From Microgenomates group bacterium Gr01-1014_7 (lineage in GTDB: Bacteria; Patescibacteriota; Microgenomatia; Daviesbacterales; UBA10151), in NCBI GenBank assembly GCA_007376405.1, contig VMGD01000005.1:2372-66371 (forward strand): DNA of 64,000 bases, written 5' to 3'. The notes beneath the pieces are model-generated. The model searched no databases. It worked only from the letters and a program-made list of their open reading frames with translations, and was not told the DNA's origin. Shown in pieces: positions 4,957-62,468 of this stretch. How positions within the stretch are numbered: position 1 is the first letter of the stretch; every line of letters starts with the position of its first letter. A program made the position numbers and the translations under genes.

Positions 4957-4988
4957 GGAATTATTCTATCAGAATATATAGTTTGTAG

Positions 4989-6140: not shown

Positions 6141-6206
6141 AAAAATTATCCTGGCAGCATATTAACAAAAAAAACTCAAAAATAGCAAGACCTTAATTTA
6201 AGTCTG

Positions 6207-18458: not shown

Positions 18459-18755
18459 CTAGCGAATATATTTTATACTCTGTTGGGATGAAAAACCAAG
18501 TTGGGCGGATTTTGAAGATATATTAAAAAGTGAAGAATCTTTGGCAATCTCATTTTCCAGAATCTGGTTTTCCATCACCAGATTGGTCTGCAGAGCTGCC
18601 AGTTCTTCAAACTTTTCACCATAAACTACTACGGTATTACTAACCCAAATCTCAACTAAAGTTAAGACAAACAAAATTCCCAAAGTTAGTCCGATTATTT
18701 TTTTGGGAAATTTTCTTTTTGGTTCTTCCGGCTCAAACTTTTTAATTATAGTCAT
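18459..18755 (-). CDS. ftsL: FtsL/DivIC-like small bitopic division protein
   Basis: 98 aa with one TM helix (IIGLTLGILFVLTLVEIWV) followed by a coiled-coil-like segment, between rsmH and ftsI. Confidence 0.5.
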   Translation of the reverse strand: MTIIKKFEPEEPKRKFPKKIIGLTLGILFVLTLVEIWVSNTVVVYGEKFEELAALQTNLVMENQILENEIAKDSSLFNISSKSAQLGFSSQQSIKYIR

Positions 18756-19654
18756 AGTCTAAATACTCTCATCTTTGCTGATCTCGCTCTCGGATTCTCA
18801 TTTATCTCCTGTGCATTAGGTAAAATCGGCTTCTTGGTTAAAACCTGACCCCATCCTTGATCTTGCCACCTTGCAAAAGTATCCTTAACGATCCGGTCCT
18901 CAAGTGAGTGAAAACTAATAATCACAATGTGACCATTTTTTTCTATTAAATCTTTTACTTCCTCCAAACCTGTCTCTAAAGCACCCAGTTCATCATTGAC
19001 TGCAATCCGCAAAGCCTGAAATACTCTGGTAGCCGGATGTATTTCCCAGTTCCTTGTCCCAACCCTCCGATAAACTCCTTCCACCAAACCAGCCAGTTCT
19101 TTTGTGGTCCTTACTCCACGGGAGCTGACCAAAGCAGAAGCCACCTGCCAAGAATACTTTTCTTCACCAAAATTAGAAAATAATTCATACAACTCCTTTC
19201 TTGTTAAAATTTTAATCAGATCCAGTGCCCTAACTCCTAAACCCGGATCCATTCTCATATCCAAAGGGCCATTCTTAGCAAAAGAAAAACCCCTTTCGGG
19301 GCTCATCAGTTGCAAACTGGATACCCCTAAATCAAAAATTGCACCTGCAAACTTCTGATCCGCCCTGAGCGAAATCGAAGGGTCCGTCTGCTTATTTAAT
19401 AAATCTTTTAATTCTCTAAAATTACCCTGAATAAGCTTGTACTTACTCTCATCTATCCCTAAATCTTTAAATCTTTTTTGCACTCTTTTAAGGGCTTGCG
19501 GGTCAATGTCTAAACCAACGACCCTCCCACCCCGCGCGATTAGTTCTATACAGTGCCCTCCGTCGCCTAAAGTACAATCTATATACCAGGCATCTCGGAC
19601 CGAGAGTGCATCTATCGCTTCCCTAAGAAGAACGGGCTTGTGATATCCTTCCAT
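18752..19654 (-). CDS. rsmH: 16S rRNA (cytosine1402-N4)-methyltransferase RsmH (MraW)
   Basis: MEGYHKPVLLREAIDAL...YIDCTLGDGGHC...FDLGVSSLQLMSPERGFSF are the typical MraW motifs, and the gene follows mraZ. Confidence 0.9.
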   Translation of the reverse strand: MEGYHKPVLLREAIDALSVRDAWYIDCTLGDGGHCIELIARGGRVVGLDIDPQALKRVQKRFKDLGIDESKYKLIQGNFRELKDLLNKQTDPSISLRADQKFAGAIFDLGVSSLQLMSPERGFSFAKNGPLDMRMDPGLGVRALDLIKILTRKELYELFSNFGEEKYSWQVASALVSSRGVRTTKELAGLVEGVYRRVGTRNWEIHPATRVFQALRIAVNDELGALETGLEEVKDLIEKNGHIVIISFHSLEDRIVKDTFARWQDQGWGQVLTKKPILPNAQEINENPRARSAKMRVFRL

Positions 19655-26448: not shown

Positions 26449-27486
26449 CTACACCAAAGATACAACTGCCTGCTTAAAATTTTTAACAAAGTTTTCTTTA
26501 CTAAAACGGTCCGCATTTTCTTTGCAGTCAGCAGGGTTAATTTTCTTTGAATCTAATTTTTTAATTGCGCCTGCTAATGATTCTACCGATTGAGTATCAA
26601 AAAAAAGTCCCGTTTTATTATCAATAACGGTTTCCACAACTCCTCCATCACGAAAAGCGATCACCGGTTTACCTAAAGCCTGTGCTTCCAGCACGACTAA
26701 CCCAAAATCTTCAATTCCAGGAGTAATTAATGCTCTGGCACCGGCCAAAATATTAACAACCATTTCATCGCTTAAATTTCCCTGTATAATTTTTAATTCT
26801 ACTCCTAAATTTTTGCACGCTGCCTCTGCCAGATCAAATCTTTTATAAATATTGGGCCTTCCTACTACTACAAAATATCCTCCGTCCCAGCCAGGGGCTG
26901 GTCCGCCTCTGGTGGAAAAAGTTTCTATATTTTTAAATCTTGCTAGATCTATAAAAGGATAAACTACTTTTGAATCTAACCTGTAAATTTTTTTTATTCT
27001 TTTTCTGGCATTTTCCGACCCGGCTAAAAAGAAATCCACACGGCGTGCAGCCACCTGATCGTAAATCCGCAGCTTAGTCATTAACAATTCTCCAATTCCA
27101 TAATTCCCTTCGCCTGAAAAATGCCATAAAAACCGTGGGGGGGTATGACAGTAACTTATATGTATTGTTCCGGGCTTTGTAATTACTGATTTGGCAAATC
27201 TGGTGGTGTGAGAAATTACCAGATCATATCCGGAAAAATCAAACTGTTCAAAAGCAATCGGATAAAAGGGGAGTAATGCCTTATAAAGACTCCTCCACCC
27301 GGGAATTTTCTGTAAAAAAGACGTGATAATTTTTTTTGATCCAAATCTTTTTACTAACTCCTGATTAGAAGCATCATAAACCGAAGTAAAAATTGGTGCA
27401 TCAGGATATATTTCACAAATCCCCTCCAAAATCCTCTCCGCCCCACCCCACTGCACCAGATCATCATGGACTATTGCAACCCGCAT
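26449..27486 (-). CDS. Glycosyltransferase family 4
   Basis: N-terminal RVAIVHDDLVQWGGAERIL and C-terminal ...EDFGLVVLEAQALGKPVIAF (EX7E-type). Confidence 0.8.
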   Translation of the reverse strand: MRVAIVHDDLVQWGGAERILEGICEIYPDAPIFTSVYDASNQELVKRFGSKKIITSFLQKIPGWRSLYKALLPFYPIAFEQFDFSGYDLVISHTTRFAKSVITKPGTIHISYCHTPPRFLWHFSGEGNYGIGELLMTKLRIYDQVAARRVDFFLAGSENARKRIKKIYRLDSKVVYPFIDLARFKNIETFSTRGGPAPGWDGGYFVVVGRPNIYKRFDLAEAACKNLGVELKIIQGNLSDEMVVNILAGARALITPGIEDFGLVVLEAQALGKPVIAFRDGGVVETVIDNKTGLFFDTQSVESLAGAIKKLDSKKINPADCKENADRFSKENFVKNFKQAVVSLV

Positions 27487-28586
27487 TTTGTGTATACCTC
27501 CAAAGTCTGTCCTGCCATCTTTTTCCAGCTAAAAAGCTTCACTCTGTTTTTGCCTTTTTCTATTAACTTTTTTCTTAAATTAACATTTTTCAGAACCTGA
27601 GAAATTTTGTTGACCATATCGTCTATCTTATTAGGGTCAAAATAAATCGCCGCTTTCCCTGCCACCTCCGGCAACGAGGCTGTATTGGAAGTTACAACGG
27701 GACAACCAAGCGCCATTGCCTCTAAAACAGGTAATCCAAATCCTTCTTCAAAAGAGGGGATTATCAAACACTCTGCATTTTTATACAAAGCAACAAGTTC
27801 TTCATCCGTCACAAATCCTGCATAAATTATCCCTTTCTCCTGCTGATCTTTTTTTATTCTTTGCCAAAAATAACTATCCCCTCCTGCCAAAATAAGTTTC
27901 AAATCCGGATTTGTCTCTCTTAATTTCAAAAACGCGGTAATCAACCCCTCCACATTTTTATGCGGATGGGCATTACCAACATAAAATGTATATGGAGGTT
28001 TTATATCAAATTTATCCAAAACTTTTTTACTTTTTACTTTTGACTTTAAACTTATTATTCTTTCATCAACCGCTTCCGGTGTAACGACTATTTTTTCAGA
28101 ATCCACCCGCCATTCATTAATTAGAAGCTCTCTCACGGAGTTTGATGGAACTAGAATTTTGCAGGATTTGGTTACAGCATTCTTAAAAACTCTTTTATAT
28201 CCAAATTGCTTTATTTTAAAAGTAAAAGGATTAAGGGTGGTTGCTCTTTTCATCTGATGATGCTGGTGAATAAGATCATGAATTGTTACCACAAATTTTC
28301 CGCTGTAAAAAATAGGGACATTAAAATGGGGAAAATGTACCAGATCAAACCGGTGTTTTTTTAACAGTTTAGGCAATTGAAACTGTTCGGCAAACCCATA
28401 CCATTTAAAATTAGCCTCTGACTTATTAAAGTTTCCTGCTTGTTTAAAATTATCCAGGTCTTTTGGCAAAAGAAATATAAAATACTCATTCTCTTTATCC
28501 AGCACCTGAAGATTACTAATAAGATTGCGCAAATACCTGCCTACTCCGGACTCATTTAAAAACCTGGCATCAATACCAATTTTCAT
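27471..28586 (-). CDS. Glycosyltransferase family 4
   Basis: C-terminal EEGFGLPVLEAMALGCPVVTSNTASLPEVAG. Confidence 0.8.
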   Translation of the reverse strand: MKIGIDARFLNESGVGRYLRNLISNLQVLDKENEYFIFLLPKDLDNFKQAGNFNKSEANFKWYGFAEQFQLPKLLKKHRFDLVHFPHFNVPIFYSGKFVVTIHDLIHQHHQMKRATTLNPFTFKIKQFGYKRVFKNAVTKSCKILVPSNSVRELLINEWRVDSEKIVVTPEAVDERIISLKSKVKSKKVLDKFDIKPPYTFYVGNAHPHKNVEGLITAFLKLRETNPDLKLILAGGDSYFWQRIKKDQQEKGIIYAGFVTDEELVALYKNAECLIIPSFEEGFGLPVLEAMALGCPVVTSNTASLPEVAGKAAIYFDPNKIDDMVNKISQVLKNVNLRKKLIEKGKNRVKLFSWKKMAGQTLEVYTKCGLQ

Positions 28587-33844: not shown

Positions 33845-34966
33845 TTATATCAGTTCGAAGACTTTCAAAACAGTTTTCGTTGTTTTTTCCCAGGAAAATT
33901 TTTTGGCTTGCTCAATTCCTGCTTTCGAATATTTTTGTTGCAGCTTTTTATCGCTGATTATTGTTCTTACTGCCTGCTCTATTTGATCAACAGAATATGG
34001 ATCAACTAAAAATCCGGCATTGCCCACCAGCTCAGGTAGTGAGGAAACATTAGAAACAATAACCGGGGTTCCACAAGCCATGGCTTCCAAAACAGGTATA
34101 CCAAATCCCTCCCAAAGAGAGGGTAAACAAAAAGCTGTTGCACCCGATATTAGATATGGCAATTCCTTTATCGGTACAAAACCCGTAAAGATTACTTTAT
34201 CCTCTATTCCTAATCTTTTGGGAGTCTGCAAAATATCCTCATACATCCAACCCTCTCTACCCTCTCCTTTTGTTTTTCCCACCACCACCAGATTTAGTCC
34301 CTCAATCCTTGAAACCGCCTCTATCAATCTTATTAAATTTTTTCTTGGCTGAATAGTCCCTATATATATTATGTAGCTATCTTTTATCTTATATTTCTTT
34401 TTTATTTGCTTAATTCTTAATTCTGAATTCTTAATTCTAAATTCTTCTCTATCATATCCCGGATAAGCCACAGTTATTTTATCTTTGCTTATTCCATATT
34501 GCTTCATAATATCCTGCTTTGAGAAATTGGAAATAGTAACAATATGATCGGCGTTTTCAATAGAAAATTTAGTCCAGTTTTTAAGCTGCCACAAATCTTT
34601 TTTTGTAAACATTTCGGGAAAATGCAGGAAAGATAAGTCAAAAATAGTACATATCCGTTTTATTCCTGATGGGCAAAATCCGGGAATATAATGAGTAGGA
34701 GAAAAAAGTATATCCGGTCTTTTGCGATTTAAATACAATGCTGCAGGCAAAGCAATTCTTGTCCAAAGTCTTAAAGGCTTAAGAATTTTATACTTCCATC
34801 CCGGCCGCTCTGGTGGCAGGTCCCCAAGCGGGGGAGAGGGAAGTAAAATTGTATAGTCATTTTTACTGTCAATACGCTCAAGTGTGCGAATTAACTCAAA
34901 CGCAACCTGCGATGATCCAAGTCGCTGCCCCACATTAGCCTCATATCCATCAATCCAAATTTTCAT
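33845..34966 (-). CDS. Glycosyltransferase family 4
   Basis: C-terminal WEGFGIPVLEAMACGTPVIVSNVSSLPELVG. Confidence 0.8.
   Translation of the reverse strand: MKIWIDGYEANVGQRLGSSQVAFELIRTLERIDSKNDYTILLPSPPLGDLPPERPGWKYKILKPLRLWTRIALPAALYLNRKRPDILFSPTHYIPGFCPSGIKRICTIFDLSFLHFPEMFTKKDLWQLKNWTKFSIENADHIVTISNFSKQDIMKQYGISKDKITVAYPGYDREEFRIKNSELRIKQIKKKYKIKDSYIIYIGTIQPRKNLIRLIEAVSRIEGLNLVVVGKTKGEGREGWMYEDILQTPKRLGIEDKVIFTGFVPIKELPYLISGATAFCLPSLWEGFGIPVLEAMACGTPVIVSNVSSLPELVGNAGFLVDPYSVDQIEQAVRTIISDKKLQQKYSKAGIEQAKKFSWEKTTKTVLKVFELI
34405..34439. repeat. Imperfect heptanucleotide tandem repeat ([T/G/A]AATTCT x5) inside the GT4 coding sequence
   Basis: taattct taattct gaattct taattct aaattct; encodes ...EFRIKNSELRIKQIK... 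on the minus strand. Confidence 0.6.
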
Positions 34967-46485: not shown

Positions 46486-47683
46486 TAAGTACTGTTATAG
46501 AAGCACCAACTATTCCATAATTTGAAATCAGCAAATATCCTAAACCCCCTATTATCAACAAATGCCCAATTGAAATCCAAATAAAAATATCCGGTCTGGC
46601 AAAATAAAAAATAACGCTAATATGTACCGGGACAGAGAATAAAAATACCAGCATGGCGAGAAATAAAAATATAAAAGGTATGACAGCTCCTTGATACCCT
46701 TGCCCGTAAATTATAGGAATGAGATATACCAAAAGAGGAATTGATAAAATCCCCAGTAAACATAAACCCGAAATTAACAACTGAAACTTTTTAAAATATG
46801 TCAGCATCTGATTTAAACTTTGAAAGCCGGCGAACTTTGGCGCAGCCACCAGTCCCAAAGCCGCAACCAGCTGAGGTACAACTTGCGCCAGTTGACTGGC
46901 AGCTCCATAAATGCCCACCTCTCTTGAAGAAAGCAAAGCAGCATTCAAAAAAGTATCCAGTCTGGCCGAGAAAGCGGAAATTATAGTGAATATAGCAACC
47001 GGAATATTATATTGTAAAAGAACTTTCGATAAACTAAATTCATTTCTGCTGGCAAATATTTTTCTGGCCGGAACAATTAACAAAGTTATTGCGAATCCGA
47101 ATAAGGGCAGTATTATATAAACAGCCAGGCTGCTTTCAACATTAAGCGCCAGGAAGTATCCTAAGACCAATATTAAAACCAGTCTTAAGAGGTTGGTTAA
47201 AACATTTACCACACTCCAGAGAAAATATTTTTGATATGCTTGAAGCATTGAGGTAGCAAAGGTAAAAAGAAGTGCCGCTCCTGCTCCAAATGCCACCAGG
47301 CGCAAAGGTAAAATAAGCTCCTCCTTATGAAAAACCTGGGTTGCCAGGAGAGGTGAAAGATAGAAAATTACAAAAAAAGATATCAGCCATGCTATCAATT
47401 TAATTTCCAAACTCAACTTCAAAAATCTGTAAGCTTTTTCGCTGTCTACTGCCAAATTGAGAGAAACAAAACGGACTAAACCCGTATTGGTTCCAATATC
47501 CGCTATATCCGCAATCAGCACAAGGCTAGCAAGGGAAACAGTCAATAACCCAAAATCCGAAGGACCCAAAAACCTTGCCAATACTATATAAAATAAAAAC
47601 CCCAATGCGCCATTTATAACTGTTCCCAAAATGGTAATTTGTGACTGCCTGAATGTGGCTGTTTTTAGTATAGATTTCCACAT
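46418..47683 (-). CDS. Wzx-like oligosaccharide flippase (MOP/polysaccharide biosynthesis protein family)
   Basis: 421 aa with about 12 TM helices; the N-terminus ...ILGTVINGALGFLFYIVLARFLGPSDFGLLTVSLA is typical of the PST family. Confidence 0.7.
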   Translation of the reverse strand: MWKSILKTATFRQSQITILGTVINGALGFLFYIVLARFLGPSDFGLLTVSLASLVLIADIADIGTNTGLVRFVSLNLAVDSEKAYRFLKLSLEIKLIAWLISFFVIFYLSPLLATQVFHKEELILPLRLVAFGAGAALLFTFATSMLQAYQKYFLWSVVNVLTNLLRLVLILVLGYFLALNVESSLAVYIILPLFGFAITLLIVPARKIFASRNEFSLSKVLLQYNIPVAIFTIISAFSARLDTFLNAALLSSREVGIYGAASQLAQVVPQLVAALGLVAAPKFAGFQSLNQMLTYFKKFQLLISGLCLLGILSIPLLVYLIPIIYGQGYQGAVIPFIFLFLAMLVFLFSVPVHISVIFYFARPDIFIWISIGHLLIIGGLGYLLISNYGIVGASITVLIGTIFNFLYPFIWFLKKIYEKS

Positions 47684-47702
47684 ATAGCCATTATAGAAGA
47701 AA

Positions 47703-50360
47703 TTATGGATGTTTGCTGGATCTTATTAGAAGTAAAATCAAACCAACTGCGGTTATCGTAGAAATTAGGAGGCCGGGAAAAACATATTTTTGAGGTTCAA
47801 ATTCAACCGTATACTGCCCATTTTTTTCTATTTTAAATCCATTTAACAGACTATACACTGGTAGGAAAGTTTGACCATTCATTTTCCACAAACCATCATA
47901 ACTTTGGGAAAATACCAAAAATGCAGGTTTTGTTAAACCGCTAATATCAACTATATACTTGGTAGGATTTATTTTGTTATAAGAGACTTTAGGATTATTA
48001 TCGCTTTGGATATTCTTCTCATCAAAATTTACGATCCTTCCCTGCAACTTCTGAGTTTTATCCTGATAACTTACCCATTCAACTTTATCCAAAACCGAAA
48101 GTGCATTAACAACGTTAATATCACCGGAAGATTTAATTTCCAGTTCTCCTCCATCTTTTTGCAACTGTCCAACCTCAAACCACCTAATATTATTTCCAGG
48201 TTTCTTCGTATCAATTTGACCAATCAATTTGCCATCCTGAGAAAAACTTAAATTGCCACTTCTCGTACTTTCCAAAACTCTTGCCAGCAGGACTTTCCCT
48301 TTTGTAAATTGTAAATTGTAAATTGTAAATTCTCTCTCCCCTTCTCCCACTGCCCATCCTCCTCCTAGATCAAAGTCCTGATTATCTATACCGTATTTGA
48401 TTTGTAGAAACTCTCTCCACCTAATCAAATCCGCAGCTTCTCTTTTCCACCAACCGGATTGATCTGGATCCTGTTTTAATTTTTTTGCAGGAAAAATTAA
48501 ATCATTGCTGTCTATAAAACTGGCTGAGAAATCTATAAATGTTTTATTGTTAAGAACAATATTTGCATTTGGTAATTCATCTATTCTTTTCCCAAGTCCG
48601 GAAAACTCTTCAACAAATATTAAAGAATTTTTAGATAAAGCTAATTCACTACTTTTTGTGGCCTCCTTATAGATATCATCTGAACCAATCACCCACCAAA
48701 TATTCTGTGTGATAAAAAATTTGTCCTGATGTTGTTTTACTTTCCATAAAGGAATCAATGAATTTTCAACTTTAGATAGCCAGGATAGTTTAGATAATTG
48801 ATCTGAAAATATAGATTGGTATTTAACATTATCTGGATGTAGATTATCTCTTCTTGGATCAAGATAAGGATAAGCTATATATTCTATTCCAGCCACATCG
48901 AATATTTCACCCATATACTGTGCCTCCCTAAGGAAATTAAATATTTCATATGTACCTAGGGTACCTATTGCAAAAGTTCTTCTTTGAACCAAACGGGCAG
49001 CTTCTATCCTGGGATGCGTCAGGCTCGAATAACCTAAAGAGGGAAAAGACGGAATCCAAAATACTCTACTAAAACTTTTATCTTTTTCTATAAATTGACT
49101 AAGTCCTGCAAACTCTTGTTGAAATAAAGGCTGAGAAAATGTACCAGTCATTTGTCCAAACCAAACTGGCCTTATCAAAAATATAAAATAGCTAGATAGT
49201 ATTATTAAAAAAAATATTTTTAGCTTTGGAAATTTTATTGCCTTCTTAAGAATCTCGTCTGTAGTTATCCCTAATAAAACACTGTACGAAAAGGCTTCTA
49301 GAAAGAAAAATTTTGATGAATCGCGGAATAATGAAAAACCTGGTATGTGCGAAAAAAGCCAAGGATAGATTTGTGGCAAAGGCTCTGAGGCGCCTTTAGT
49401 TAAGAAAATGGAAAATATAGAGACTAATAACCAGAATCCAACAACACGGTCTTTAGGTCGCAGGATGGGTGCAAGAAATACAAGTATAGGAATAAAAACA
49501 AATTCAGGACGAAGAGTTGTGATATTACCAAAGACATTTTTAAACCAGTGGGGGGCAAGTAGCAATATGCTATGACCTAAATCTATAAGGCTTAAAAAAG
49601 AGGCTTGAGTAAAAAAAGCATAAGTACCAGAGGAAATGGGGGCTTTAAATAAAGGTAATAACCAATAAATATTTAATCCTAGCACTACTGTACCGATAAT
49701 TACTCCGCTACTTATCCAGTCCAAAAACAAAGAGACCCTTTTTTTAGGATCCAATAATAATTGGTAAAAAAACAGTACTAAGCTAAGGAGAAATAAAACA
49801 TAAATAAATCTAAAATCAAAAAAACCTAAAATTGAGACTGATAAACCTGCAAAGACTTTTTTATTAAATCCTCCCTTAATAGATTTTTCTACTGCCAGGA
49901 AGGCTATTGGAAACCAGGCATAGGTAAGTGCTATTGATAATTGTCCACCATCAATAACTAAGAGAATATAGGTCGTCGTTAAATAAAATAAAGATGCAAT
50001 AAATTTAGCATCATCAGTTAGCTTAACACTTCCACAAAATTTCCAAATACCTATCCCTCCCAAAAGTAAAAACGGTATAAAAAGAAGCACTCTTTCTATA
50101 ATAGAAAAACCTAAACCAATATTTGCGAGAATACCTGCTATAAATGACAATGGCCAAGACCAAAGAAAGAATGTCGAATACTCCCCCAGTCCCTCAGCCC
50201 CACTCTCTGACCAAACGAAAGGCAAATTCATAGAAGATTTAAGTAAAGATTCTGAAATTATTGGAAAATCATTAGCAACCCTTGCCCCTGGTAAAAACCA
50301 CTGCCAATAAACTGTAACCAGTAAAAGCAGTAGAATTATTACCAGAAATTTATTTTTCAT
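47703..50360 (-). CDS. Large polytopic membrane protein (885 aa): N-terminal multi-TM GT-C-like domain, large extracytoplasmic domain, C-terminal TM anchor
   Basis: Its architecture parallels the two giant paralogs downstream, and it contains the heptanucleotide repeat at 48312-48339. Confidence 0.5.
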   Translation of the reverse strand: MKNKFLVIILLLLLVTVYWQWFLPGARVANDFPIISESLLKSSMNLPFVWSESGAEGLGEYSTFFLWSWPLSFIAGILANIGLGFSIIERVLLFIPFLLLGGIGIWKFCGSVKLTDDAKFIASLFYLTTTYILLVIDGGQLSIALTYAWFPIAFLAVEKSIKGGFNKKVFAGLSVSILGFFDFRFIYVLFLLSLVLFFYQLLLDPKKRVSLFLDWISSGVIIGTVVLGLNIYWLLPLFKAPISSGTYAFFTQASFLSLIDLGHSILLLAPHWFKNVFGNITTLRPEFVFIPILVFLAPILRPKDRVVGFWLLVSIFSIFLTKGASEPLPQIYPWLFSHIPGFSLFRDSSKFFFLEAFSYSVLLGITTDEILKKAIKFPKLKIFFLIILSSYFIFLIRPVWFGQMTGTFSQPLFQQEFAGLSQFIEKDKSFSRVFWIPSFPSLGYSSLTHPRIEAARLVQRRTFAIGTLGTYEIFNFLREAQYMGEIFDVAGIEYIAYPYLDPRRDNLHPDNVKYQSIFSDQLSKLSWLSKVENSLIPLWKVKQHQDKFFITQNIWWVIGSDDIYKEATKSSELALSKNSLIFVEEFSGLGKRIDELPNANIVLNNKTFIDFSASFIDSNDLIFPAKKLKQDPDQSGWWKREAADLIRWREFLQIKYGIDNQDFDLGGGWAVGEGEREFTIYNLQFTKGKVLLARVLESTRSGNLSFSQDGKLIGQIDTKKPGNNIRWFEVGQLQKDGGELEIKSSGDINVVNALSVLDKVEWVSYQDKTQKLQGRIVNFDEKNIQSDNNPKVSYNKINPTKYIVDISGLTKPAFLVFSQSYDGLWKMNGQTFLPVYSLLNGFKIEKNGQYTVEFEPQKYVFPGLLISTITAVGLILLLIRSSKHP
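48312..48339. repeat. Perfect heptanucleotide tandem repeat (TTGTAAA)x4 inside the 885-aa coding sequence
   Basis: ttgtaaattgtaaattgtaaattgtaaa, read directly; encodes EFTIYNLQFTK on the minus strand. The 7-bp unit is not a multiple of 3. Confidence 0.85.
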
Positions 50361-50523
50361 TTTTTAGCTCAAATATATAGAGTAACGATCCTCCTACTAT
50401 AATCCAAAATGATAAAACAATAAGTCTTAATGCAAAACCTGAATGGTTTAAAAAAGCAGCTAAGCCGCTTAACAAAATAAAAAACAATCCTACTAAAAAT
50501 GTATGTTTACTCAAAATTCTCAT
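50350..50523 (-). CDS. Unannotated small two-TM ORF (57 aa) whose stop overlaps the start of the 885-aa gene
   Basis: Manual translation gives MRILSKHTFLVGLFFILLSGLAAFLNHSGFALRLIVLSFWIIVGGSLLYIFELKNEK. No clear SD is present. It resembles the small partners of the giant genes only weakly. Confidence 0.3.
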   Translation of the reverse strand: MRILSKHTFLVGLFFILLSGLAAFLNHSGFALRLIVLSFWIIVGGSLLYIFELKNEK

Positions 50524-50562
50524 TTAAAAGATTATATTACATTTTGATATATAATTTAGTGT

Positions 50563-52047
50563 ATGCTAAAGAAAATATTTCCATTCCTCATTATATTTAC
50601 AGTTATCCTTTTTCTATATTACCCAGCTCTATTTACTTATTTTTCTCAGGATGATTTTTTTCACTTTAAAGTAAGTTTAACTGACGGAAGCATCAGGAAA
50701 TTTGTTAATCTATTTGGTTTCTACTCTTTTTCCGACAGAGGAATTGCTTTTTATAGACCAATTTTCAGGGAGGCTCTTTTTAATACTTTTTATTCGCTAT
50801 TTGGATTAAATGCTTACCCTTTTAGAATTTTTCAATTTCTAATTCTATTCTTAAATTCAATTCTTGCTTATCATTTAATTCAGAAAATTTTTAAAAATAA
50901 ATTTCTTTCTTTTTTTGTGGCTTTCTTTTATGCTATTTGTTCTGCCCAAGTTTCCCCTCTTTATTATCTGGCAGGGGGAATACAAGTATTAGGCGCAACT
51001 ACTTTTTTGCTTCTCACTTTAATCTTTATCCTTAAGAATTCAATTCTTTCCTATATTACATTTCTTTTGGCTCTAGGTTCTCATGAACTAGCTTCTATAA
51101 TACCCTTTCTAATTTCAGCATTACTTTTTATTCAATATCCTTTTAAAAAATTCCTAAGAAAAATTTGGATAGCTTGCCCTTTCTTTTTTATCTTACTGGT
51201 TTATTTATATTTAGAAATTACTAAGATAGGTTTTTCTGCAACAGAAAAAGAATACCAGGCAATATTTAGCCTAAAAACTATTCTTAATTCCTATATGTGG
51301 TATGCAGGCTGGGCTCTAGGATTACCCGAAATGTTAATAGATTTTGTGTTACCTGGATTTAAACTTAATCCAACGCTTCTTAGATATTGGGGGAATTATT
51401 ACATGATTATTTTCTCAACTTTTTTGACAATTTTTTTTCTACTAACAGCAGCTATTATCTACTTATCAATCAAAAAAAGAAATTTCTTTACAAAGCAGCT
51501 TTTGTTTTTCATTTCCTGGTTCCTATTAAGCCTACTTCCCATTATCTTACTTCCACTTCATAAATCAACTCAGTACCTGGAAACAGGCCTAGTCGCCTTC
51601 TGGACTATAATAGGACTAATTATTTTAAATGTACACCAGGCATCCAAACTACAGCTCGTCAGGTGGGAACGTAAAGTTGTTAGCATTTTCTTGTTTATTT
51701 TAATATCATCCCTTTTTATCCTATCTGCAACATCAGCAATCTTACAAAGAACTACTTATTGGGCAGCTGAAAGAGGAAGATATGCAGAAAAGCTGATAAA
51801 ACAAGTTACTACCACTTATCCTATTTTGCCAAAAGGATCTGTAATATACATTGAAAATGACCCGAACTATCCATTTGTTGCAACTGAGTGGGGATCCAGT
51901 TCCAAACAAGCAGCTTTTATTTTAAATAATGCGGATGCATTAAGACTTGTTTATAAAGATTCGACAATAACAGTTTATTACGAAGATCTGGAAAAACCTG
52001 ACCTTTCGGAAAACAACATTTATTTTGTGGTGGCTAGAATCTATTAA
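50563..52047 (+). CDS. GT-C-type integral-membrane glycosyltransferase-like protein; one of the few plus-strand genes
   Basis: 494 aa, polytopic, first loop ...FTYFSQDDFFHFKV (DD motif), with a C-terminal soluble domain. Confidence 0.5.
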   Translation: MLKKIFPFLIIFTVILFLYYPALFTYFSQDDFFHFKVSLTDGSIRKFVNLFGFYSFSDRGIAFYRPIFREALFNTFYSLFGLNAYPFRIFQFLILFLNSILAYHLIQKIFKNKFLSFFVAFFYAICSAQVSPLYYLAGGIQVLGATTFLLLTLIFILKNSILSYITFLLALGSHELASIIPFLISALLFIQYPFKKFLRKIWIACPFFFILLVYLYLEITKIGFSATEKEYQAIFSLKTILNSYMWYAGWALGLPEMLIDFVLPGFKLNPTLLRYWGNYYMIIFSTFLTIFFLLTAAIIYLSIKKRNFFTKQLLFFISWFLLSLLPIILLPLHKSTQYLETGLVAFWTIIGLIILNVHQASKLQLVRWERKVVSIFLFILISSLFILSATSAILQRTTYWAAERGRYAEKLIKQVTTTYPILPKGSVIYIENDPNYPFVATEWGSSSKQAAFILNNADALRLVYKDSTITVYYEDLEKPDLSENNIYFVVARIY

Positions 52048-55795: not shown

Positions 55796-56105
55796 ATTTT
55801 AAAAGTTTTGGCAGATAAAATAAACTTGAGATGATTAATATGCCAAATCCCAAACTACCAAAAAAATTTGCAATATCAATAAAGTCTAAAATGAAAAAAA
55901 CAACCATAATAAAAAATAATATCATTGACAAGACAACGAAAGCTTTTTTTAACCATGGTTGGGATATTAAAAGCAGTGTCATCAATGTAAAAAATAAAGT
56001 TTGAAATAGAGAAACCCACGAATCAAATTTAAAACCGGAGTTTATTATCAAGAAAAATCCAAAGACAAACAAATATAAAGTTATTTTCTTAATTGCTTTT
56101 TTCAT
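55782..56105 (-). CDS. Small polytopic membrane protein (107 aa), partner of the 1164-aa protein
   Basis: Four hydrophobic segments; paralogous to 52044..52385. Confidence 0.5.
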   Translation of the reverse strand: MKKAIKKITLYLFVFGFFLIINSGFKFDSWVSLFQTLFFTLMTLLLISQPWLKKAFVVLSMILFFIMVVFFILDFIDIANFFGSLGFGILIISSLFYLPKLLKYGYI

Positions 56106-59100
56106 GGCTCCATTTTAAATATTTGCCAACTAAATGAACTATTGTAAAAATTAATAAACTGAATACGCTAATGTATATACCTAAATATAAATACTTATCC
56201 CCTGAAAATCTAATTCTAAATTTATAGTTTCCTTTTTTATCTATAAACCATCCATTACCATACATATTAGCAAAGAAGTGTTTTGGTACCATATACTCTT
56301 TTTCACCGTCAAACAAGGTTAACTTCCAGTTATCGTTAAACGTTTCGCTGAAAATCATGTAGCTTGGCTTATCCAAAACTATATTCCCTTCATATTCCAA
56401 TGGAGCCTTTTTAGTGTAATTCAAACTTACAATTTGAGATGTCTGATTTGCAGAAATGCTCCTAAGGAATAACAGGTTATCTAAAATTCTAAATACCCGA
56501 ATATTACGGATAGATATGCTCGAAGTCTTTTGAAAATTAAATTTCACTTCCTGTTTATCACATAGCCATTTCTCTGCTATGATAGATTTACAATCATCCC
56601 AAGGGATTGATACAACTTGGAATGAAAAATTGGCGGAATTTTTTCTGGGAGATATATAAAGGTTATAAGTTTTCCAATATTTATTGTAAGGATCGAACTC
56701 TACTGGTTTTATAAATTGATAAGATCTCTGCTTAATTAATGCATCAGCCACTAAATAATCATCTGGATCACTATCTTGCAGTATCCTTACAATTGGGTCA
56801 CTTCCTTTCTGTGTCCAATATTCAAAAGATAGTAAGTAGGTGCTGTTGGGATGGAAAGGCTCTACCTTTATCTCGTACGAATTTGGATTGTGTTGTCCAG
56901 AGACTATCCGTATCTCTCCTTGCTTATCTTTGATTAAATTTACAGAATTTTGCATATTAAAACTAATCTCATGCAGACCTTCATTTAAAGGTATTGTCCC
57001 ATAAGATATTAGATCATCCTTTATTTGACCAGTTCTTGACTGAACTGTTTTGTCTACTTGTAAATCTAATTGACTTAAATTTTTTTGATAAATTGGAGAT
57101 ACCTTTGAATCTGCCATCAATATCTCATATTCTCCGTCGACTGGTATAAAAAACCTATGTACTTGCCTATTGTATCTGGCCAGTTCTCTTTCACTTATCA
57201 ATTCGTAAATTGGTTGCATTTTCATATCGATCATTCTCATTCTTAAAGTTTCTATTGCTTGACTTAATACCGCTTTATCTTGATCTTTTGCTCTTTGATA
57301 AATTTGTCTCAAAACTACTTCATGACGGGAAAATAATATTTTAAATTCAGTAGGTGCTTCAACACTAATTAATCCATCTTTAAAGATTTTATCGACCGCT
57401 TTATTTAGATGTTGTATATATCTTTGAATTATTGGAGATACTGATTTATTTGGATCTTTATCCTGCATCCTATATATCTCTACTAACCTCTTTCCTGCAA
57501 ATGTGAGATGAATATTTTCTTTTGTTTTTTGATACCCACTAGCCTGAATAAACTCCTTTAAAATTATCATTGGATATAGTGGTAAATCAGGCAAAAATCT
57601 AGCTGGTGGTAACTCCTTTAAGGAATTCTCTTCTGATGCTAATTGTGTTGAAGAGATTTTCACAATAGTGGTGGGGATCAAAATTGTTTGTTTATAACCA
57701 GATAAATTTGTAAGCTCGTTACTATCTGATTTATCAGACAGTAGTATTCTAGTTGGATCGCTTCTTAAAAACCAGAACCAAGTGTCATAATTTGAACCAA
57801 GTTTTAGATAATTAAAGTAAGAAGCGGTGTAGATTTTACTTAAAAAGCTTTTTTCATCCATTTCATATACAGTTACTTCCTCAATCTCTTTTTGTTTTTT
57901 TAAAAAAGGCAGCGAGTCTAAAATTTTCCCTATTTCTTCAGGCGATTGAACCCCTGAAGCTTGCCAGTTAATATCGTAATGAAGAACGATAAATCGGACA
58001 TTAAAAGCTCTGAATAGTTCCTTCAAATATTCAGCATATTTTATCTGATCAAAGCTAGTCATCAGATCAAACCCCTGCAATGCATCGTCCAAATAAGATA
58101 AATTAAAACCCATGGATATTGAAGGATTTGATGTAAAAAAACCAGCATTTGACTCTGCTCCAGAATAACCATATTGCCACCTATAGGTAGAGGCATCAGT
58201 AATAGCTAAAGGTAAATGTAAAATATTACCGTCTTTTTTTTGATTCTTAATCCAAAGATTCGCTTGCTGGTAATAGGGAGGAATCTCTACAAAATTCCTT
58301 TTCTCCAAGGTCCCAAACAGTGTCCCTGTCCAAAAAGGCCAATGATAAACTCCAAAAAATAATCCAAAACTTAAAATTAAAACTGCCTTGCCTGCTAAAT
58401 TATTCCTCTTCCAAAAATAAGTAGCAAGATTAAAAAAGCCGACTGAAAAAAGTACACTACCTGCAAAAGGAATTAATAATCCGAATTTTTCAAATGGATT
58501 TCTTAATACTCCCAAAAAAAAGAATTTTTCAAACATATAAGGATAAAAATAGCCTAACGGAGGGGCAACTCCTTTTGCTAAAAAGACTGCTAAAATAAAA
58601 AGTATGCTCCAAAAAATCAATTCTCTACTCTTTTTCGTATAATAAATACCGATTATGGTAAACGAAACCCCTATCCAGGGAATAAATAAAAAAAGCGGAT
58701 GCTTAAAAACTTCCCCTAATTCTTGTCTTTGGAATAAATAAAAGGAATTTAACCCGGGAAGTGAATATGGGATAATACTTTGCTCACCAATTGCAAACAA
58801 GGTCGAAAGAGTATCACCTACTGCATGTTGAGCAGAAGCCAAAGTAGGCAAAATAAAAAACGCTGGAAGAATCCACCAGGTATTGGTTAATACCCAAAGT
58901 ATCAACCCTAAACTGAAGGATGCCGAAATTTGAGAAGCTTTTTTCCATCCAATCCATGGAATGAATATTTCAAAGAGGGTGTACATACCAAGAAGAAACC
59001 ATAAGGTAATAGCGTAAGCCAATGTGCCGAACATATAGGAAAAAATTAAATTGACTGCTATAAATATGATTAAACTTGTAAATTCTTTCTCTCTCATCCA

Positions 59101-59583
59101 TTTTCTCCAAAAGAGTAAAAGTAATGGCAAAGAAGCTACAAAGAAAAATGTGGTGTGGGTGAATCTATGCCAGACCAAAACCATCATATAGGGATTGACC
59201 ATATAAAAAAGGCCTGCAAGTATTGCCATCCCCCTATTTTCATTCTTCATAATATTTTTAGCCAGCAAATACATTCCAAAACCCATTAGAAATAGCAAAA
59301 TACCAAAGATTACTGCTTGGATCATAAAAGCAGGAAGACCCAAGTTTTGAAGAAATGCAAAAAAAACATAAGCAGGCAGAGCAGTCAAATTTTGAGGTCT
59401 AGGAAAACCCGGCGCGGTTTCAGTCCACCATGGCTGCGATGCCATCTGAAGTACTCTTTGGGGATTATGTGTCGGTAAACCTACATCTCCTCCGCCATAC
59501 ATCAACCCATAATGAAACCATGAAAACATCACGACTAGAGTGATAAACAGGTAAAGAGAACCAGCTAGTATATTTCTCTTCAT
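56089..59583 (-). CDS. Giant polytopic membrane protein (1164 aa), tandem paralog of 52382..55795
   Basis: N-terminus ...SWFHYGLMYGGGDVGLPTHNPQRVLQMASQPWWTETAPGF... is colinear with the 1137-aa protein and has the same domain architecture. Confidence 0.55.
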   Translation of the reverse strand: MKRNILAGSLYLFITLVVMFSWFHYGLMYGGGDVGLPTHNPQRVLQMASQPWWTETAPGFPRPQNLTALPAYVFFAFLQNLGLPAFMIQAVIFGILLFLMGFGMYLLAKNIMKNENRGMAILAGLFYMVNPYMMVLVWHRFTHTTFFFVASLPLLLLFWRKWMREKEFTSLIIFIAVNLIFSYMFGTLAYAITLWFLLGMYTLFEIFIPWIGWKKASQISASFSLGLILWVLTNTWWILPAFFILPTLASAQHAVGDTLSTLFAIGEQSIIPYSLPGLNSFYLFQRQELGEVFKHPLFLFIPWIGVSFTIIGIYYTKKSRELIFWSILFILAVFLAKGVAPPLGYFYPYMFEKFFFLGVLRNPFEKFGLLIPFAGSVLFSVGFFNLATYFWKRNNLAGKAVLILSFGLFFGVYHWPFWTGTLFGTLEKRNFVEIPPYYQQANLWIKNQKKDGNILHLPLAITDASTYRWQYGYSGAESNAGFFTSNPSISMGFNLSYLDDALQGFDLMTSFDQIKYAEYLKELFRAFNVRFIVLHYDINWQASGVQSPEEIGKILDSLPFLKKQKEIEEVTVYEMDEKSFLSKIYTASYFNYLKLGSNYDTWFWFLRSDPTRILLSDKSDSNELTNLSGYKQTILIPTTIVKISSTQLASEENSLKELPPARFLPDLPLYPMIILKEFIQASGYQKTKENIHLTFAGKRLVEIYRMQDKDPNKSVSPIIQRYIQHLNKAVDKIFKDGLISVEAPTEFKILFSRHEVVLRQIYQRAKDQDKAVLSQAIETLRMRMIDMKMQPIYELISERELARYNRQVHRFFIPVDGEYEILMADSKVSPIYQKNLSQLDLQVDKTVQSRTGQIKDDLISYGTIPLNEGLHEISFNMQNSVNLIKDKQGEIRIVSGQHNPNSYEIKVEPFHPNSTYLLSFEYWTQKGSDPIVRILQDSDPDDYLVADALIKQRSYQFIKPVEFDPYNKYWKTYNLYISPRKNSANFSFQVVSIPWDDCKSIIAEKWLCDKQEVKFNFQKTSSISIRNIRVFRILDNLLFLRSISANQTSQIVSLNYTKKAPLEYEGNIVLDKPSYMIFSETFNDNWKLTLFDGEKEYMVPKHFFANMYGNGWFIDKKGNYKFRIRFSGDKYLYLGIYISVFSLLIFTIVHLVGKYLKWSHEKSN

Positions 59584-60620: not shown

Positions 60621-61276
60621 TTTATATTTTTAATACACAAAATTCCAGCTGCAATCTTGGGAATGAAGTAGACAATTGGCGACAATAAAAAGGATACTGC
60701 AAAATAGAATGAAATTAATACTCTGTTGTGATTAATACGAATTAAACCTGCTTCCGACCAAAGTGGAGAAAATCCTATCCCAAACACTTTATAACCCCTT
60801 TTCCTAAAATCTTCTTCTGACCATCCTGATTTATGAACCTGATGAGGATTGTCTCCAAGATAACCATGGGGCTGCTTCATAAATTCTCGTGGTGTACCTA
60901 TTATAACTCTTTGCCTGGCTATTGACTCTATTAAAGACAGTAACTCTTCTCCCCTCTTATAATCTAAATGCTCGATTACTTGTGAGCAGAAAACTACATC
61001 ATATTTCTTTCTTTTTATAATTTCTTGCTTGACAAATTTTACTATATCCGCTTTATAAACTTTTGTAAAAGTACTTCTTTTTGATGCAATTTTGACATTT
61101 TTTGCATATAGATCTACTCCTGTAACCTGCCATTCTTTCCCATCCGCCAAAAGTTCCATTAGATTGCCGTCACCACACCCGAGATCTAAAATAGTCTTTG
61201 GGTTACCTAAACTCTGCCTTAGTAACCACATATATGAGAATGGTATGGTAACTATTAATCTATTGATGAATTTCAT
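60617..61276 (-). CDS. Class I SAM-dependent methyltransferase
   Basis: Motif I ILDLGCGDGNLMELL and ...VVFCSQVIEHL. Confidence 0.7.
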   Translation of the reverse strand: MKFINRLIVTIPFSYMWLLRQSLGNPKTILDLGCGDGNLMELLADGKEWQVTGVDLYAKNVKIASKRSTFTKVYKADIVKFVKQEIIKRKKYDVVFCSQVIEHLDYKRGEELLSLIESIARQRVIIGTPREFMKQPHGYLGDNPHQVHKSGWSEEDFRKRGYKVFGIGFSPLWSEAGLIRINHNRVLISFYFAVSFLLSPIVYFIPKIAAGILCIKNIK

Positions 61277-62468
61277 TGAAAATTTCTTCTGCTCGTTTAT
61301 CCCAAGACCAATTCTTTTTTAGCATGTCCAATCCTTCTGCACCTATCCTATCTCTCATTAATTGGTCATTTAATAAACTTATAACCACATTGGCAAATTT
61401 TTCTAAATTACCAATATCTACTTTAATCATTCCTTTAGGATAATACGATTTGTAAGAATCTAGGTCAAATCCGATGCAAGGTAATCCAAAAGCCATAGCT
61501 TCGCCAGCTGCCATACCCCCTGAATCATAAAATGAAGGGTGTAGTACAATTTTACTTTGGGAAAAAATCTTATACTTATCTCCCCCATCAAATAGATAAC
61601 CCTTAACAATAATGTTCTTTTCTAATTTTAAATTTTTAATTTTTATTTTTAGATTTTTCATTAACGGACCGTCTCCTATCATAATCAATCTGGCATCGCT
61701 CTTTTGATCTACCACATATCTCCATATATCAATGAGCTCTATAACACCTTTCTGTGGGTGAAAGCGGCCTTGAAAAACAGCATCATAAATTTTAGGCAAT
61801 TTTTTAAATTTAACTTTCCATTTTCTAATTTGTTCTAAATCTACAGCACCATAGACAATGATTACTCGTCCCATTTTATTTAGTCTTGGAAAATTTAGCC
61901 TCTCATTTTCATTATTAACTAAAACAAAATCTGCAAATTTGTTAATCAAGTTTCTAGTAGGCAATTGGATAAACCAGTAAACAAGGGCGCTTAATTTATA
62001 AGTATTATCTCTTTTCCCCTCGGTAAAACCTACCCAAGGTTTGGGAGCTGTTTGATACCATGCTGCTACCCACTTTATTTTGGGAAATCGTAACTTTAAA
62101 ATCCATGCCGGAATTGAATCCATCCAAAATTCTGATGCTGAGTAAACTATCGTTTTGGGTTGATTGTCCAAACTCACAGTCAACCCAACTCTAATTCCTT
62201 CAAGAATCCTTGCTAAGTAATTTATCAAAAAACCAAAATTTCTCCATGGTTTCATACTTGATACAAGATAGTTGACACCTGATAGACTTAACTGCTGTCT
62301 TTTACATAATTCGTATCCTTCTTGAGAAACCCAAATACTAACCTTAGCACGTTTATTCCAACGTCGGGCAAATTCTATAAAGATTCGGTCACTTCCTGAC
62401 AACCCCTGACCATAAGCAGCTAAGGCAAAGATGTGTATTTTTTTAATTCCCATACTTTTATATGACAA
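61260..62468 (-). CDS. Glycosyltransferase family 4
   Basis: C-terminal ...HPSFYDSGGMAAGEAMAFGLPCIGFD. Confidence 0.75.
   Translation of the reverse strand: MSYKSMGIKKIHIFALAAYGQGLSGSDRIFIEFARRWNKRAKVSIWVSQEGYELCKRQQLSLSGVNYLVSSMKPWRNFGFLINYLARILEGIRVGLTVSLDNQPKTIVYSASEFWMDSIPAWILKLRFPKIKWVAAWYQTAPKPWVGFTEGKRDNTYKLSALVYWFIQLPTRNLINKFADFVLVNNENERLNFPRLNKMGRVIIVYGAVDLEQIRKWKVKFKKLPKIYDAVFQGRFHPQKGVIELIDIWRYVVDQKSDARLIMIGDGPLMKNLKIKIKNLKLEKNIIVKGYLFDGGDKYKIFSQSKIVLHPSFYDSGGMAAGEAMAFGLPCIGFDLDSYKSYYPKGMIKVDIGNLEKFANVVISLLNDQLMRDRIGAEGLDMLKKNWSWDKRAEEIFNEIHQ

Follow-up and report, generated by a model that had tools for sequence, protein, structure and literature searches.

Here we consider a 64,000-nucleotide stretch of DNA (hereafter the window) from Microgenomates group bacterium Gr01-1014_7, an uncultured groundwater organism with a metagenome-assembled genome, in which the gene for an 885-amino-acid (885-aa) membrane protein, TSC87767.1, contains four perfect tandem copies of a 7-nucleotide (7-nt) unit. 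We suggest that this array very probably undergoes frameshifting by replication slippage, and that it acts as a low-frequency contingency switch, alternating between an ON and a truncated state of an enzyme for a step in envelope glycan synthesis, a reading to which we would assign a probability of roughly 0.6. Three observations carry the argument: a 7-nt-periodic array is conserved at the same codon position in homologues down to 50% protein identity; its units are alike within genomes and differ between lineages, that is, they evolve in concert; and near-clonal strains of a relative differ by the natural deletion of exactly one unit. An array held at one position over such distances, together with a near-clonal one-unit deletion, makes for an unusually clear evolutionary trace of repeated slippage.

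The original prediction, made from the letters of the window alone, had flagged the repeat as a candidate slipped-strand phase-variation site. It was right about the four head-to-tail copies of TTGTAAA in the 885-aa gene and about the peptide, EFTIYNLQFTK, which is recovered on translating the minus strand, but its interval (48312-48339) is displaced rightward by 10 nt and takes in just 18 nt of the array. On the plus strand the four units span 48302-48329 with no mismatch and are followed by TT at 48330-48331; Tandem Repeats Finder reports period 7, 4.3 copies and 100% matches for 48302-48331. Starting at codon 678 (phase 0), 76% of the way into the gene, the array specifies the residues FTIYNLQFT; in the register used below for orthologues it is spelled as GAATTTA, three copies of CAATTTA and a final CAA. 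Its origin by chance is negligible and the array is real: 23 consecutive positions match at lag 7, where 200 shuffled versions of the window give 8.4 on average and 13 at most, and the longest run at any other lag from 4 to 12 in the real sequence is at most 13. It is also the sole perfect repeat in the 64 kb with a unit of 5-9 nt and at least 3 copies. The unit lies within an open reading frame and is not a multiple of three, and copy numbers of 1, 4 and 7 keep the gene in frame. As anticipated, gaining or losing a single unit shifts the frame: simulated alleles with three and five units encode 701 and 718 aa, respectively.

Variation by a whole unit is found in a relative whose protein is 50% identical to that of the window. 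The 90% protein cluster of P0107, which corresponds to the Daviesbacteria RIFCSPHIGHO2_01_FULL_40_11 lineage and has an array identical to the window's, includes a 696-aa member ending in EFTIYNLQKGRFCLQG ahead of its stop and a 190-aa member starting MESSRSG. The two open reading frames (ORFs) are adjacent on a 71.7-kb contig (ENA ERZ27254763 k141_1398694; locus L157). Between conserved anchors on either side of the array, L157 has 44 nt and three units, compared with 51 nt and four units in loci L016 and L097. Across the 2663-nt gene, L157 and L016 are separated by 0 substitutions and one 7-nt gap; over 8.1 kb, the gap is joined by 5 substitutions, and the comparison with L097 yields 1 substitution in 6.5 kb plus the same 7-nt gap. 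The shifted frame of L157 ends 9 codons past the array, as slippage predicts. The gene is split where expected, and a copy-number variant of the kind foreseen by the original prediction does occur, albeit in a relative.

Two further details bear on this allele. Another contig of ERZ27254763 is 100% identical to one from the JGI sample (3300025317 / Ga0209541) that yielded L097 (L159/L160), which places the three- and four-unit alleles in the same sample or in samples that are closely related. In addition, the contig name suggests assembly at k=141, far above the 28 nt of the array, which makes collapse of the repeat by the assembler unlikely. The TGA that closes the shifted frame overlaps the ATG of the 190-aa ORF (TGATG, positions 5089-5093 of L157), an arrangement typical of translational coupling. 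Judging from this junction, the OFF state in the L157 lineage may include a re-initiated C-terminal part, giving a split rather than a truncated enzyme; at the position of that ATG, the window has a leucine codon (TTG), not methionine.

How is the site treated in more distant relatives? The family of the 885-aa protein comprises more than 240 full-length homologues of about 880 aa and 50-75% identity, mostly named Candidatus Daviesbacteria. In most aligned homologues the array segment is free of insertions and deletions and its residues vary (EFTIYNLQFTK, LEFRIQNSEFRK, KYQISNIKYQK, LKLKVKSEKLKK and others). We retrieved DNA for 77 genome loci and 78 metagenome loci and cut out the segment bounded by the conserved residues 673 and 691 of the query; 103 loci, or 104 with the window, had both of these anchors, giving 65 unique alleles of exactly 51 nt. 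At the orthologous site we find four copies of CAATTTA (L005, L016/L097), of AAGTTCA (L019) or of AAATATC (L082), as well as mixed arrays: two GAATTTA and three GAATTCA in L002, two CAATTGA and two CAATTTA in L003, and two AAGCTCA and two AAGTTCA in L008. Perfect fourfold arrays are known for four different units, CAATTTA, AAGTTCA, AAATATC and the GAATTCA type. Rather than losing the repeat while keeping the peptide, orthologues do the reverse, retaining a 7-nt-periodic array at the site as both peptide and unit change.

This periodicity can be quantified. Averaged across the 65 alleles, identity peaks at lag 7 (0.56), lag 14 (0.53) and lag 21 (0.52), compared with 0.23-0.43 at other lags and a lag-7 background of about 0.28; lag 3, the usual coding periodicity, is the lowest of all (0.23). 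Lag 7 is the best lag in 46 of the 65 alleles, and the orthologous site has the top lag-7 score of the whole gene in 34 and falls within the top 1% in 40. To ask how much of the signal the peptide itself requires, we recoded the alleles synonymously with each gene's own codon usage. Recoding lowers mean lag-7 identity from 0.56 to 0.41; in 57 of the 65 alleles the real value is higher than the recoded mean, significantly so (p<=0.05) in 39. Periodicity therefore goes beyond what the peptide requires, and the signal lies in the DNA.

Units are also more alike within a genome than orthology would predict. Within-genome unit identity is 0.648, as against 0.505 +/- 0.006 after shuffling columns among genomes (maximum 0.528 in 2000 shuffles) and 0.532 between same-index units of different genomes. 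When well-kept arrays are compared in pairs, the units within each of the two genomes are more alike than the orthologous units in 316 of 351 cases. Homogenisation within genomes and divergence between lineages amount to concerted evolution. Departures from perfection are themselves revealing: the consensus units AAGTTAA, CAATTGA and GAATTAA would create a stop codon in one of the three frames, and they are broken in exactly the unit that would be in frame (AAGTGAA, CAATGGA, and GAATTCA or GAATTAT, respectively). An enrichment of stop-avoiding changes is partly trivial, as an open gene cannot hold a stop, and only the low count of other deviations is informative; beyond the forced changes, arrays are a mere 1.2-1.3 nt or so in 28 away from perfection. 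The simplest explanation for homogenisation without net length change is repeated loss and regain of units, in which case the lineage would have passed repeatedly through frame-shifted states and back.

Conservation at the nucleotide level is also apparent in the comparison of the window with L016. The longest exact DNA match in the gene is a 39-nt block that includes the array (AGAATTTACAATTTACAATTTACAATTTACAAAAGGGAA; window positions 48290-48331) and takes in 12 synonymous positions; the next longest match is 17 nt. Ancestral retention, convergence and local transfer are all candidate explanations for this block.

What would a slip do to the protein? No Pfam family matches the 885-aa sequence (E<=5), nor does a profile search of PDB return any entry, so attempts to name the protein by sequence failed and only a fold search was informative. 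An AlphaFold model built from 40 homologues (mean pLDDT 71.7, pTM 0.67) lays out a helical membrane core (approximately residues 1-430), a poorly modelled middle, beta-sandwiches at 669-757 and 791-854, and a C-terminal helix at 855-882. D31 in the first loop, D137-G-G-Q and D182/R184 are invariant in the homologue alignment. The best Foldseek match of the model in PDB is mycobacterial AftD (6wby; E 8.6e-9, TM-score 0.41 on the query), followed by STT3/AglB oligosaccharyltransferases (E ~5e-4) and AftA, and the C-terminal sandwiches align with 8j3x, 1o8p, 7ay3 and 1ux7 over about 100 columns at a root-mean-square deviation of about 3 A (E 1e-3 to 1e-2). On the strength of these fold matches, the protein is probably a GT-C-type glycosyltransferase (AftD/STT3-like) with carbohydrate-binding-like domains. 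In the model it resembles Mycobacterium AftD in having a membrane GT-C core followed by soluble beta-sandwiches of the carbohydrate-binding module (CBM) type, but it is shorter, ends in a membrane helix and has no detectable sequence similarity to Pfam or PDB entries. We know of no frame-shifting repeat in AftD.

The genomic setting fits a role in glycan synthesis. The gene belongs to an island whose members, all on one strand, encode GT2, GT4, PMT_2/GT-C, flippase and methyltransferase proteins, and a neighbour (56089..59583) matches Pfam GT-C_AftD by sequence; the 885-aa protein would thus act on a surface glycan. The original description of a large surface-exposed protein in a glycan island holds for the island but not for the protein, which looks like a membrane glycosyltransferase with CBM-like domains rather than a surface antigen. 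An identical protein is encoded on two contigs, one of them ENA ERZ27284378 k139_32958 (78.7 kb), and its protein cluster has one member.

In the model, the array encodes strand 676-681 and the ensuing turn of a beta-hairpin, the first of the first sandwich. Because of this position, a one-unit slip would keep the membrane core and remove both sandwiches and the C-terminal helix. Since 76% of the gene precedes the array, the OFF state shortens the protein at its C-terminus and need not be a null. We therefore envisage the following sequence of events. With four units, the full 885-aa enzyme is made. Slippage of one 7-nt unit during replication would shift the frame, and translation would end 14-31 codons later, leaving the GT-C core without its CBM-like sandwiches and C-terminal helix and the enzyme with altered or lost function. 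A second slip would restore the frame. Repeated contraction and expansion would keep the units of each genome alike while lineages drift towards different units, with selection at the protein level fixing the consensus length and breaking any unit that creates an in-frame stop. The slippage mechanism and the reversibility of the switch we infer from the comparisons above, and switching may further be fast and adaptive. Both the conserved periodic array and the one-unit variant in a relative support the site as a candidate for slipped-strand phase variation, with reversible, high-frequency switching the more conjectural part of that proposal.

Several observations weigh against a selected switch. 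Out-of-frame alleles are rare: L157 is the only one among the 104 alleles with both anchors (1/104, compared with an OFF state in 65.6% of genomes for the heptanucleotide array of neuO discussed below; PMC13001214). The 78 metagenome loci hold no other, ten further 90% protein clusters contain only full-length members or fragments at contig ends, and for the organism of the window, with a single allele on record (one cluster member, two contigs), no variant is seen. Nor is there a five-unit allele among those examined. The unit count is 4-5, never 7-8, despite a loop that tolerates insertions (8-9 aa at the hairpin turn in some orthologues), and there is therefore no sign of selection for a higher switching rate. 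A position 76% into the gene is unusual for on/off contingency loci: the products of a slip, at 701-718 aa, retain the membrane GT-C core in full and may still be active. Finally, arrays have decayed in many orthologues, with lag-7 identity down to 0.23, which would fit birth and death without function. If the switch is real, a single OFF allele in 104 argues for either a low rate or strong selection for the ON state.

These points give weight to a simpler scenario. Imagine that a bias in replication or repair creates and homogenises 7-nt microsatellites in permissive surface loops, so that the site is an incidental mutational hot spot, L157 a recent loss-of-function mutant, and no switch is under selection. 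The scarcity of out-of-frame alleles, the short and never expanded tracts, their late position, the insertion-tolerant loop and the continuum from perfect to fully decayed arrays among orthologues are all what one would expect, as is the appearance of new arrays elsewhere in sub-clades (four CTTACTT units at codon ~390-400; five arrays in L048; see below). Two observations argue against this scenario as a sufficient account. First, an array is still present at the one site in orthologues as distant as 50% protein identity, and there the 39 identical nucleotides include 12 synonymous positions. Second, homogenisation without length change needs repeated frame-shifted intermediates, implying that these are frequent or tolerated. 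That all arrays examined lie in glycan-synthesis genes is a weaker point, as the sampled DNA consists almost entirely of glycan loci. On balance we regard the hot spot as less likely than a switch, but as the main rival to it.

Alternatively, the array might be a nucleic-acid signal embedded in coding sequence, serving as an internal promoter or as a series of binding sites for a protein that recognises DNA or RNA. Many units have the form nAATTnA with a palindromic AATT core, this form recurs in three unrelated glycosyltransferase genes (GT-C, GT4 and the GT2 of L008/L044), and, read off the sequence, TTnAnA and nAnAAT sit in the 17-bp register of -35 and -10 hexamers. Yet the units of orthologues (AAATATC, AAGTTCA, ATATACA, TCATTAA, CGATTTA) are too different to share a recognition sequence, the arrays are found 20%, 47% and 76% of the way along their genes, and a second one falls inside a membrane helix. 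A promoter scan detected no site on the sense strand of the array, nor were sites enriched in the gene: 47600-50600 holds 16 consensus sites, compared with 11.6 +/- 3.6 in shuffled sequence, and only a 9/12 antisense match touches the array's edge, so that we rejected an internal promoter as the main explanation and consider a signal of any kind improbable. Least credible of all is a by-product of selection for an amphipathic beta-hairpin in AT-rich codons, with the perfect repeat of the window a coincidence: the hairpin pattern is conserved (x-hydrophobic-x-I/V-x-N/S-x-x-hydrophobic-x) and recoded sequences still exceed the lag-7 background, but the real alleles surpass their recoded counterparts, lag 3 is the lowest lag, chance expectation of a perfect array is negligible, the sole indel between near-identical strains falls on exactly one unit, and, within genomes, covariation links different residues at codon positions that are not the same, which together with the recoding control leads us to reject an origin in protein or codon bias alone.

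Returning to the contingency switch, we can ask how it compares with systems already described. In Escherichia coli K1, neuO, the capsule O-acetyltransferase gene of prophage CUS-3, undergoes phase variation through an intragenic (AAGACTC)n array, and full translation requires a unit number divisible by three (PMC13001214). The array lies at the 5' end of that gene, has 3-53 units whose number also tunes activity, and is carried by a prophage in one species (PMC13001214). As in neuO, we see a 7-nt unit inside the coding sequence of a surface-polysaccharide enzyme, full length in only one residue class modulo 3, and single-unit slippage. Unlike neuO, arrays of the window type have 4-5 units, a length fixed in 103 of 104 alleles and a position 76% into the gene; they encode a structural hairpin, are chromosomal and are conserved, with changing units, across many species. 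The proteins themselves are unrelated, that of the window having a predicted GT-C fold and not being an O-acetyltransferase.

Heptanucleotide simple sequence repeats are also known in Haemophilus influenzae, including an intragenic (AATTTTG)14 with a frameshift in hmw1A, detected with a threshold of at least 3 units (PMC2651432). With the lipooligosaccharide and capsule contingency loci of Haemophilus, Neisseria and Campylobacter, the window shares the presence of several glycan genes per locus with short repeats that are not multiples of three, and a preference for one class of unit per organism, as for tetranucleotides in H. influenzae. Those tracts are usually long, 5'-proximal and variable between strains, and their switching has been measured, whereas the tracts of the window are short and are candidate switches. 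We know of no tract in the loci of these three genera whose position is conserved across distant species while its unit changes in concert. Judged by the features that define a contingency locus, the array has a unit that is not a multiple of three, a frame-changing polymorphism of a whole unit (in a relative) and a probable glycan gene as its host; it departs from the pattern in lacking a 5'-proximal position at which a slip abolishes the product. A closer parallel for that position may be Helicobacter canadensis, where repeats near the 3' ends of genes are reported to switch the C-terminal sequence (PMC2823697). There too, a slip in a late repeat replaces or removes the C-terminal portion rather than abolishing the protein; the tracts are homopolymeric, unlike the heptamer here, where two domains and a membrane anchor would be removed.

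To our knowledge, slipped-strand phase variation has been described almost exclusively in host-adapted pathogens with cultured strains. Patescibacteria, or the Candidate Phyla Radiation (CPR), are ultra-small, uncultured cells, probably episymbionts, and how they vary their surfaces is poorly understood. Our full-text literature search returned no report that joins Patescibacteria or the CPR with phase-variable or frame-shifting repeats. The only slippage-type repeat variation it found in a CPR bacterium was a gene with a hypervariable 9-mer (PTD) repeat in Gracilibacterium (PMC6851277), which has a 9-nt, in-frame unit and varies protein length without switching frame. While the class of mechanism is already known, what is new here is the CPR lineage, the deep positional conservation with concerted turnover of units, and the restriction to period 7 of the arrays in several glycan genes. 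Unit counts in existing groundwater read sets would provide a directly testable marker of population heterogeneity in envelope glycans.

Coordinates of the array, of its host gene and of the other features discussed are given in Table 1.

Table 1. Features in the window, with positions counted from its first nucleotide.
Feature	Position	Strand	Basis or details
Gene for the 885-aa membrane protein that holds the array, predicted GT-C glycosyltransferase fold	47703..50360	-	ORF/gene call, homologues, fold search
Heptanucleotide array	48302..48331	-	sense (TTTACAA)x4; encodes F678-T687 of EFTIYNLQFTK
TAA stop after loss of one unit (3 or 6 units)	48248..48250	-	simulated; 701-aa product
TGA stop after gain of one unit (5 or 2 units)	48211..48213	-	simulated; 718-aa product
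N-terminal multi-helix membrane core (~residues 1-430), presumed catalytic GT-C module	49071..50360	-	model helices, invariant residues, fold matches
Predicted beta-hairpin, strands 676-681 and 690-698, first of the first C-terminal sandwich	48267..48335	-	DSSP on model, pLDDT 84-90
Two predicted C-terminal beta-sandwiches (669-757, 791-854), CBM6/CBM36-like	47799..48356	-	model, Foldseek
Predicted C-terminal transmembrane helix, residues 855-882	47715..47798	-	model helix, hydrophobic sequence
Sister array in GT4 gene 33845..34966	34409..34446	-	GAATTTA GAATTAA GAATTCA GAATTAA GAATTAA; peptide EEFRIKNSELRIKQ, aa 173-186
Less perfect sister array in paralogous GT4 gene 27471..28586	28019..28053	-	AAGTTTA AAGTCAA AAGTAAA AAGTAAA; SLKSKVKSKK at aa 178

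The array in the GT-C gene is not the only one of its kind. Searching the window for arrays of at least 4 units at a lag identity of at least 85%, we find three, all of period 7 (the one at 48302, 34409-34436 and 28024-28051), and none of periods 5, 6 or 8-13. The same holds for the 1.04 Mb of fetched loci (L002-L156), which contain 35 unique arrays of period 7 (16 at the orthologous site and 19 elsewhere) and three of period 4; arrays of periods 5, 6 and 8-13 (at least 4 copies, at least 85%) are absent from these loci. Both sister arrays of the window lie in the same structural loop of the GT4 fold. At 34409, the third unit (GAATTCA) breaks a would-be in-frame TAA. Homologues with 68-79% identity have 7-aa-periodic peptides that differ by lineage, and the DNA of four of them confirms that the site carries their own units: four AAATTCA in L158, four to five GAGTTCA in L159, and mixed units in L161/L163. 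Lengths in this GT4 family span 359-409 aa, and in some homologues about 14 aa are missing at the site.

We tentatively propose that Daviesbacteria-type Microgenomates maintain conserved intragenic heptanucleotide switches in GT-C, two GT4 and, in relatives, GT2 genes for envelope glycans, at long-held sites where units turn over in concert, a generalisation that we consider possible rather than probable. If it holds, CPR bacteria would have their first known "phasome" of frame-shifting simple-sequence repeats, in which selection preserves the repeat itself rather than the peptide it encodes. The finding raises the concrete question of why period 7 alone forms such arrays in these genomes, and a dedicated mechanism or a polymerase bias that favours exactly 7-nt units may be at work.

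A GT2 gene downstream of the GT-C orthologue has four AATTCAA units just after a DDGSxDN motif (DNSKFKIQNSKL), at 8459-8486 in L008, 8491-8518 in L044 and 9381-9408 in L015; its unit belongs to the same family as those of the GT-C and GT4 arrays. A weak period-7 tract is present in the window at 61619-61662 (minus strand) in a GT4-type gene (61260..62468), with 79% matches, 10% indels and a Lys-rich, low-complexity product (NLKIKIKNLKLEK); it may reflect nothing but AT-rich low complexity.

Some orthologous sites depart from the standard 51 nt. The segment in L014 is 57 nt long, 6 nt over the standard, and reads as an extra unit (+7) combined with an A-run after the array that is shorter by 1 nt (P0097, NLKLKVKNEKLKVKKDD). 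Read in this way, the L014 allele would be a compensated frameshift, a relic of the gain of one unit. In two unrelated genes, insertions of 24-36 nt that are GC-rich and keep the frame occur mid-array, at the GT-C site (L007/L083, L012/L013, L100, L135) and in GT4 homologues (P0238, P0251, P0252, P0255, P0288); examples are TCCCTCGACTTCGCTCGGGACAGG in L007 and the peptides PSTSLGTG, FDFAQGK and VPDSRSGRGG. Target-site duplication by a small inserted element finds no support, as the 24-nt GC-rich insert of L007/L083 lies between units without an extra 7-nt unit on its flanks. A motif related to these insertions, CCTTCGATTTCGCTCAGGGC, is found in frame in window gene 18752..19654 (~19358-19385, minus strand).

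Other members of the GT-C family carry arrays at different places. In a Woesebacteria-type sub-clade, four CTTACTT units lie at codon ~390-400, inside a membrane helix (LLLTSYFLLL), a place at which the window has no array; their locations are 5074-5101 in L024, 2625-2652 in L113/L114, 3655-3682 in L026 and 2604-2631 in L118. Variants of this array have two units altered alike (two CTTACTA and two CTTACTT). The orthologue in L048 (1081 aa; 2950-6195) has five heptamer arrays, among them a perfect fourfold ATCAAAA and, at the orthologous site, four units of ATATACn. Several of the five fall in stretches that the 885-aa protein lacks, which suggests that expansions by three units may add 7-aa loops.

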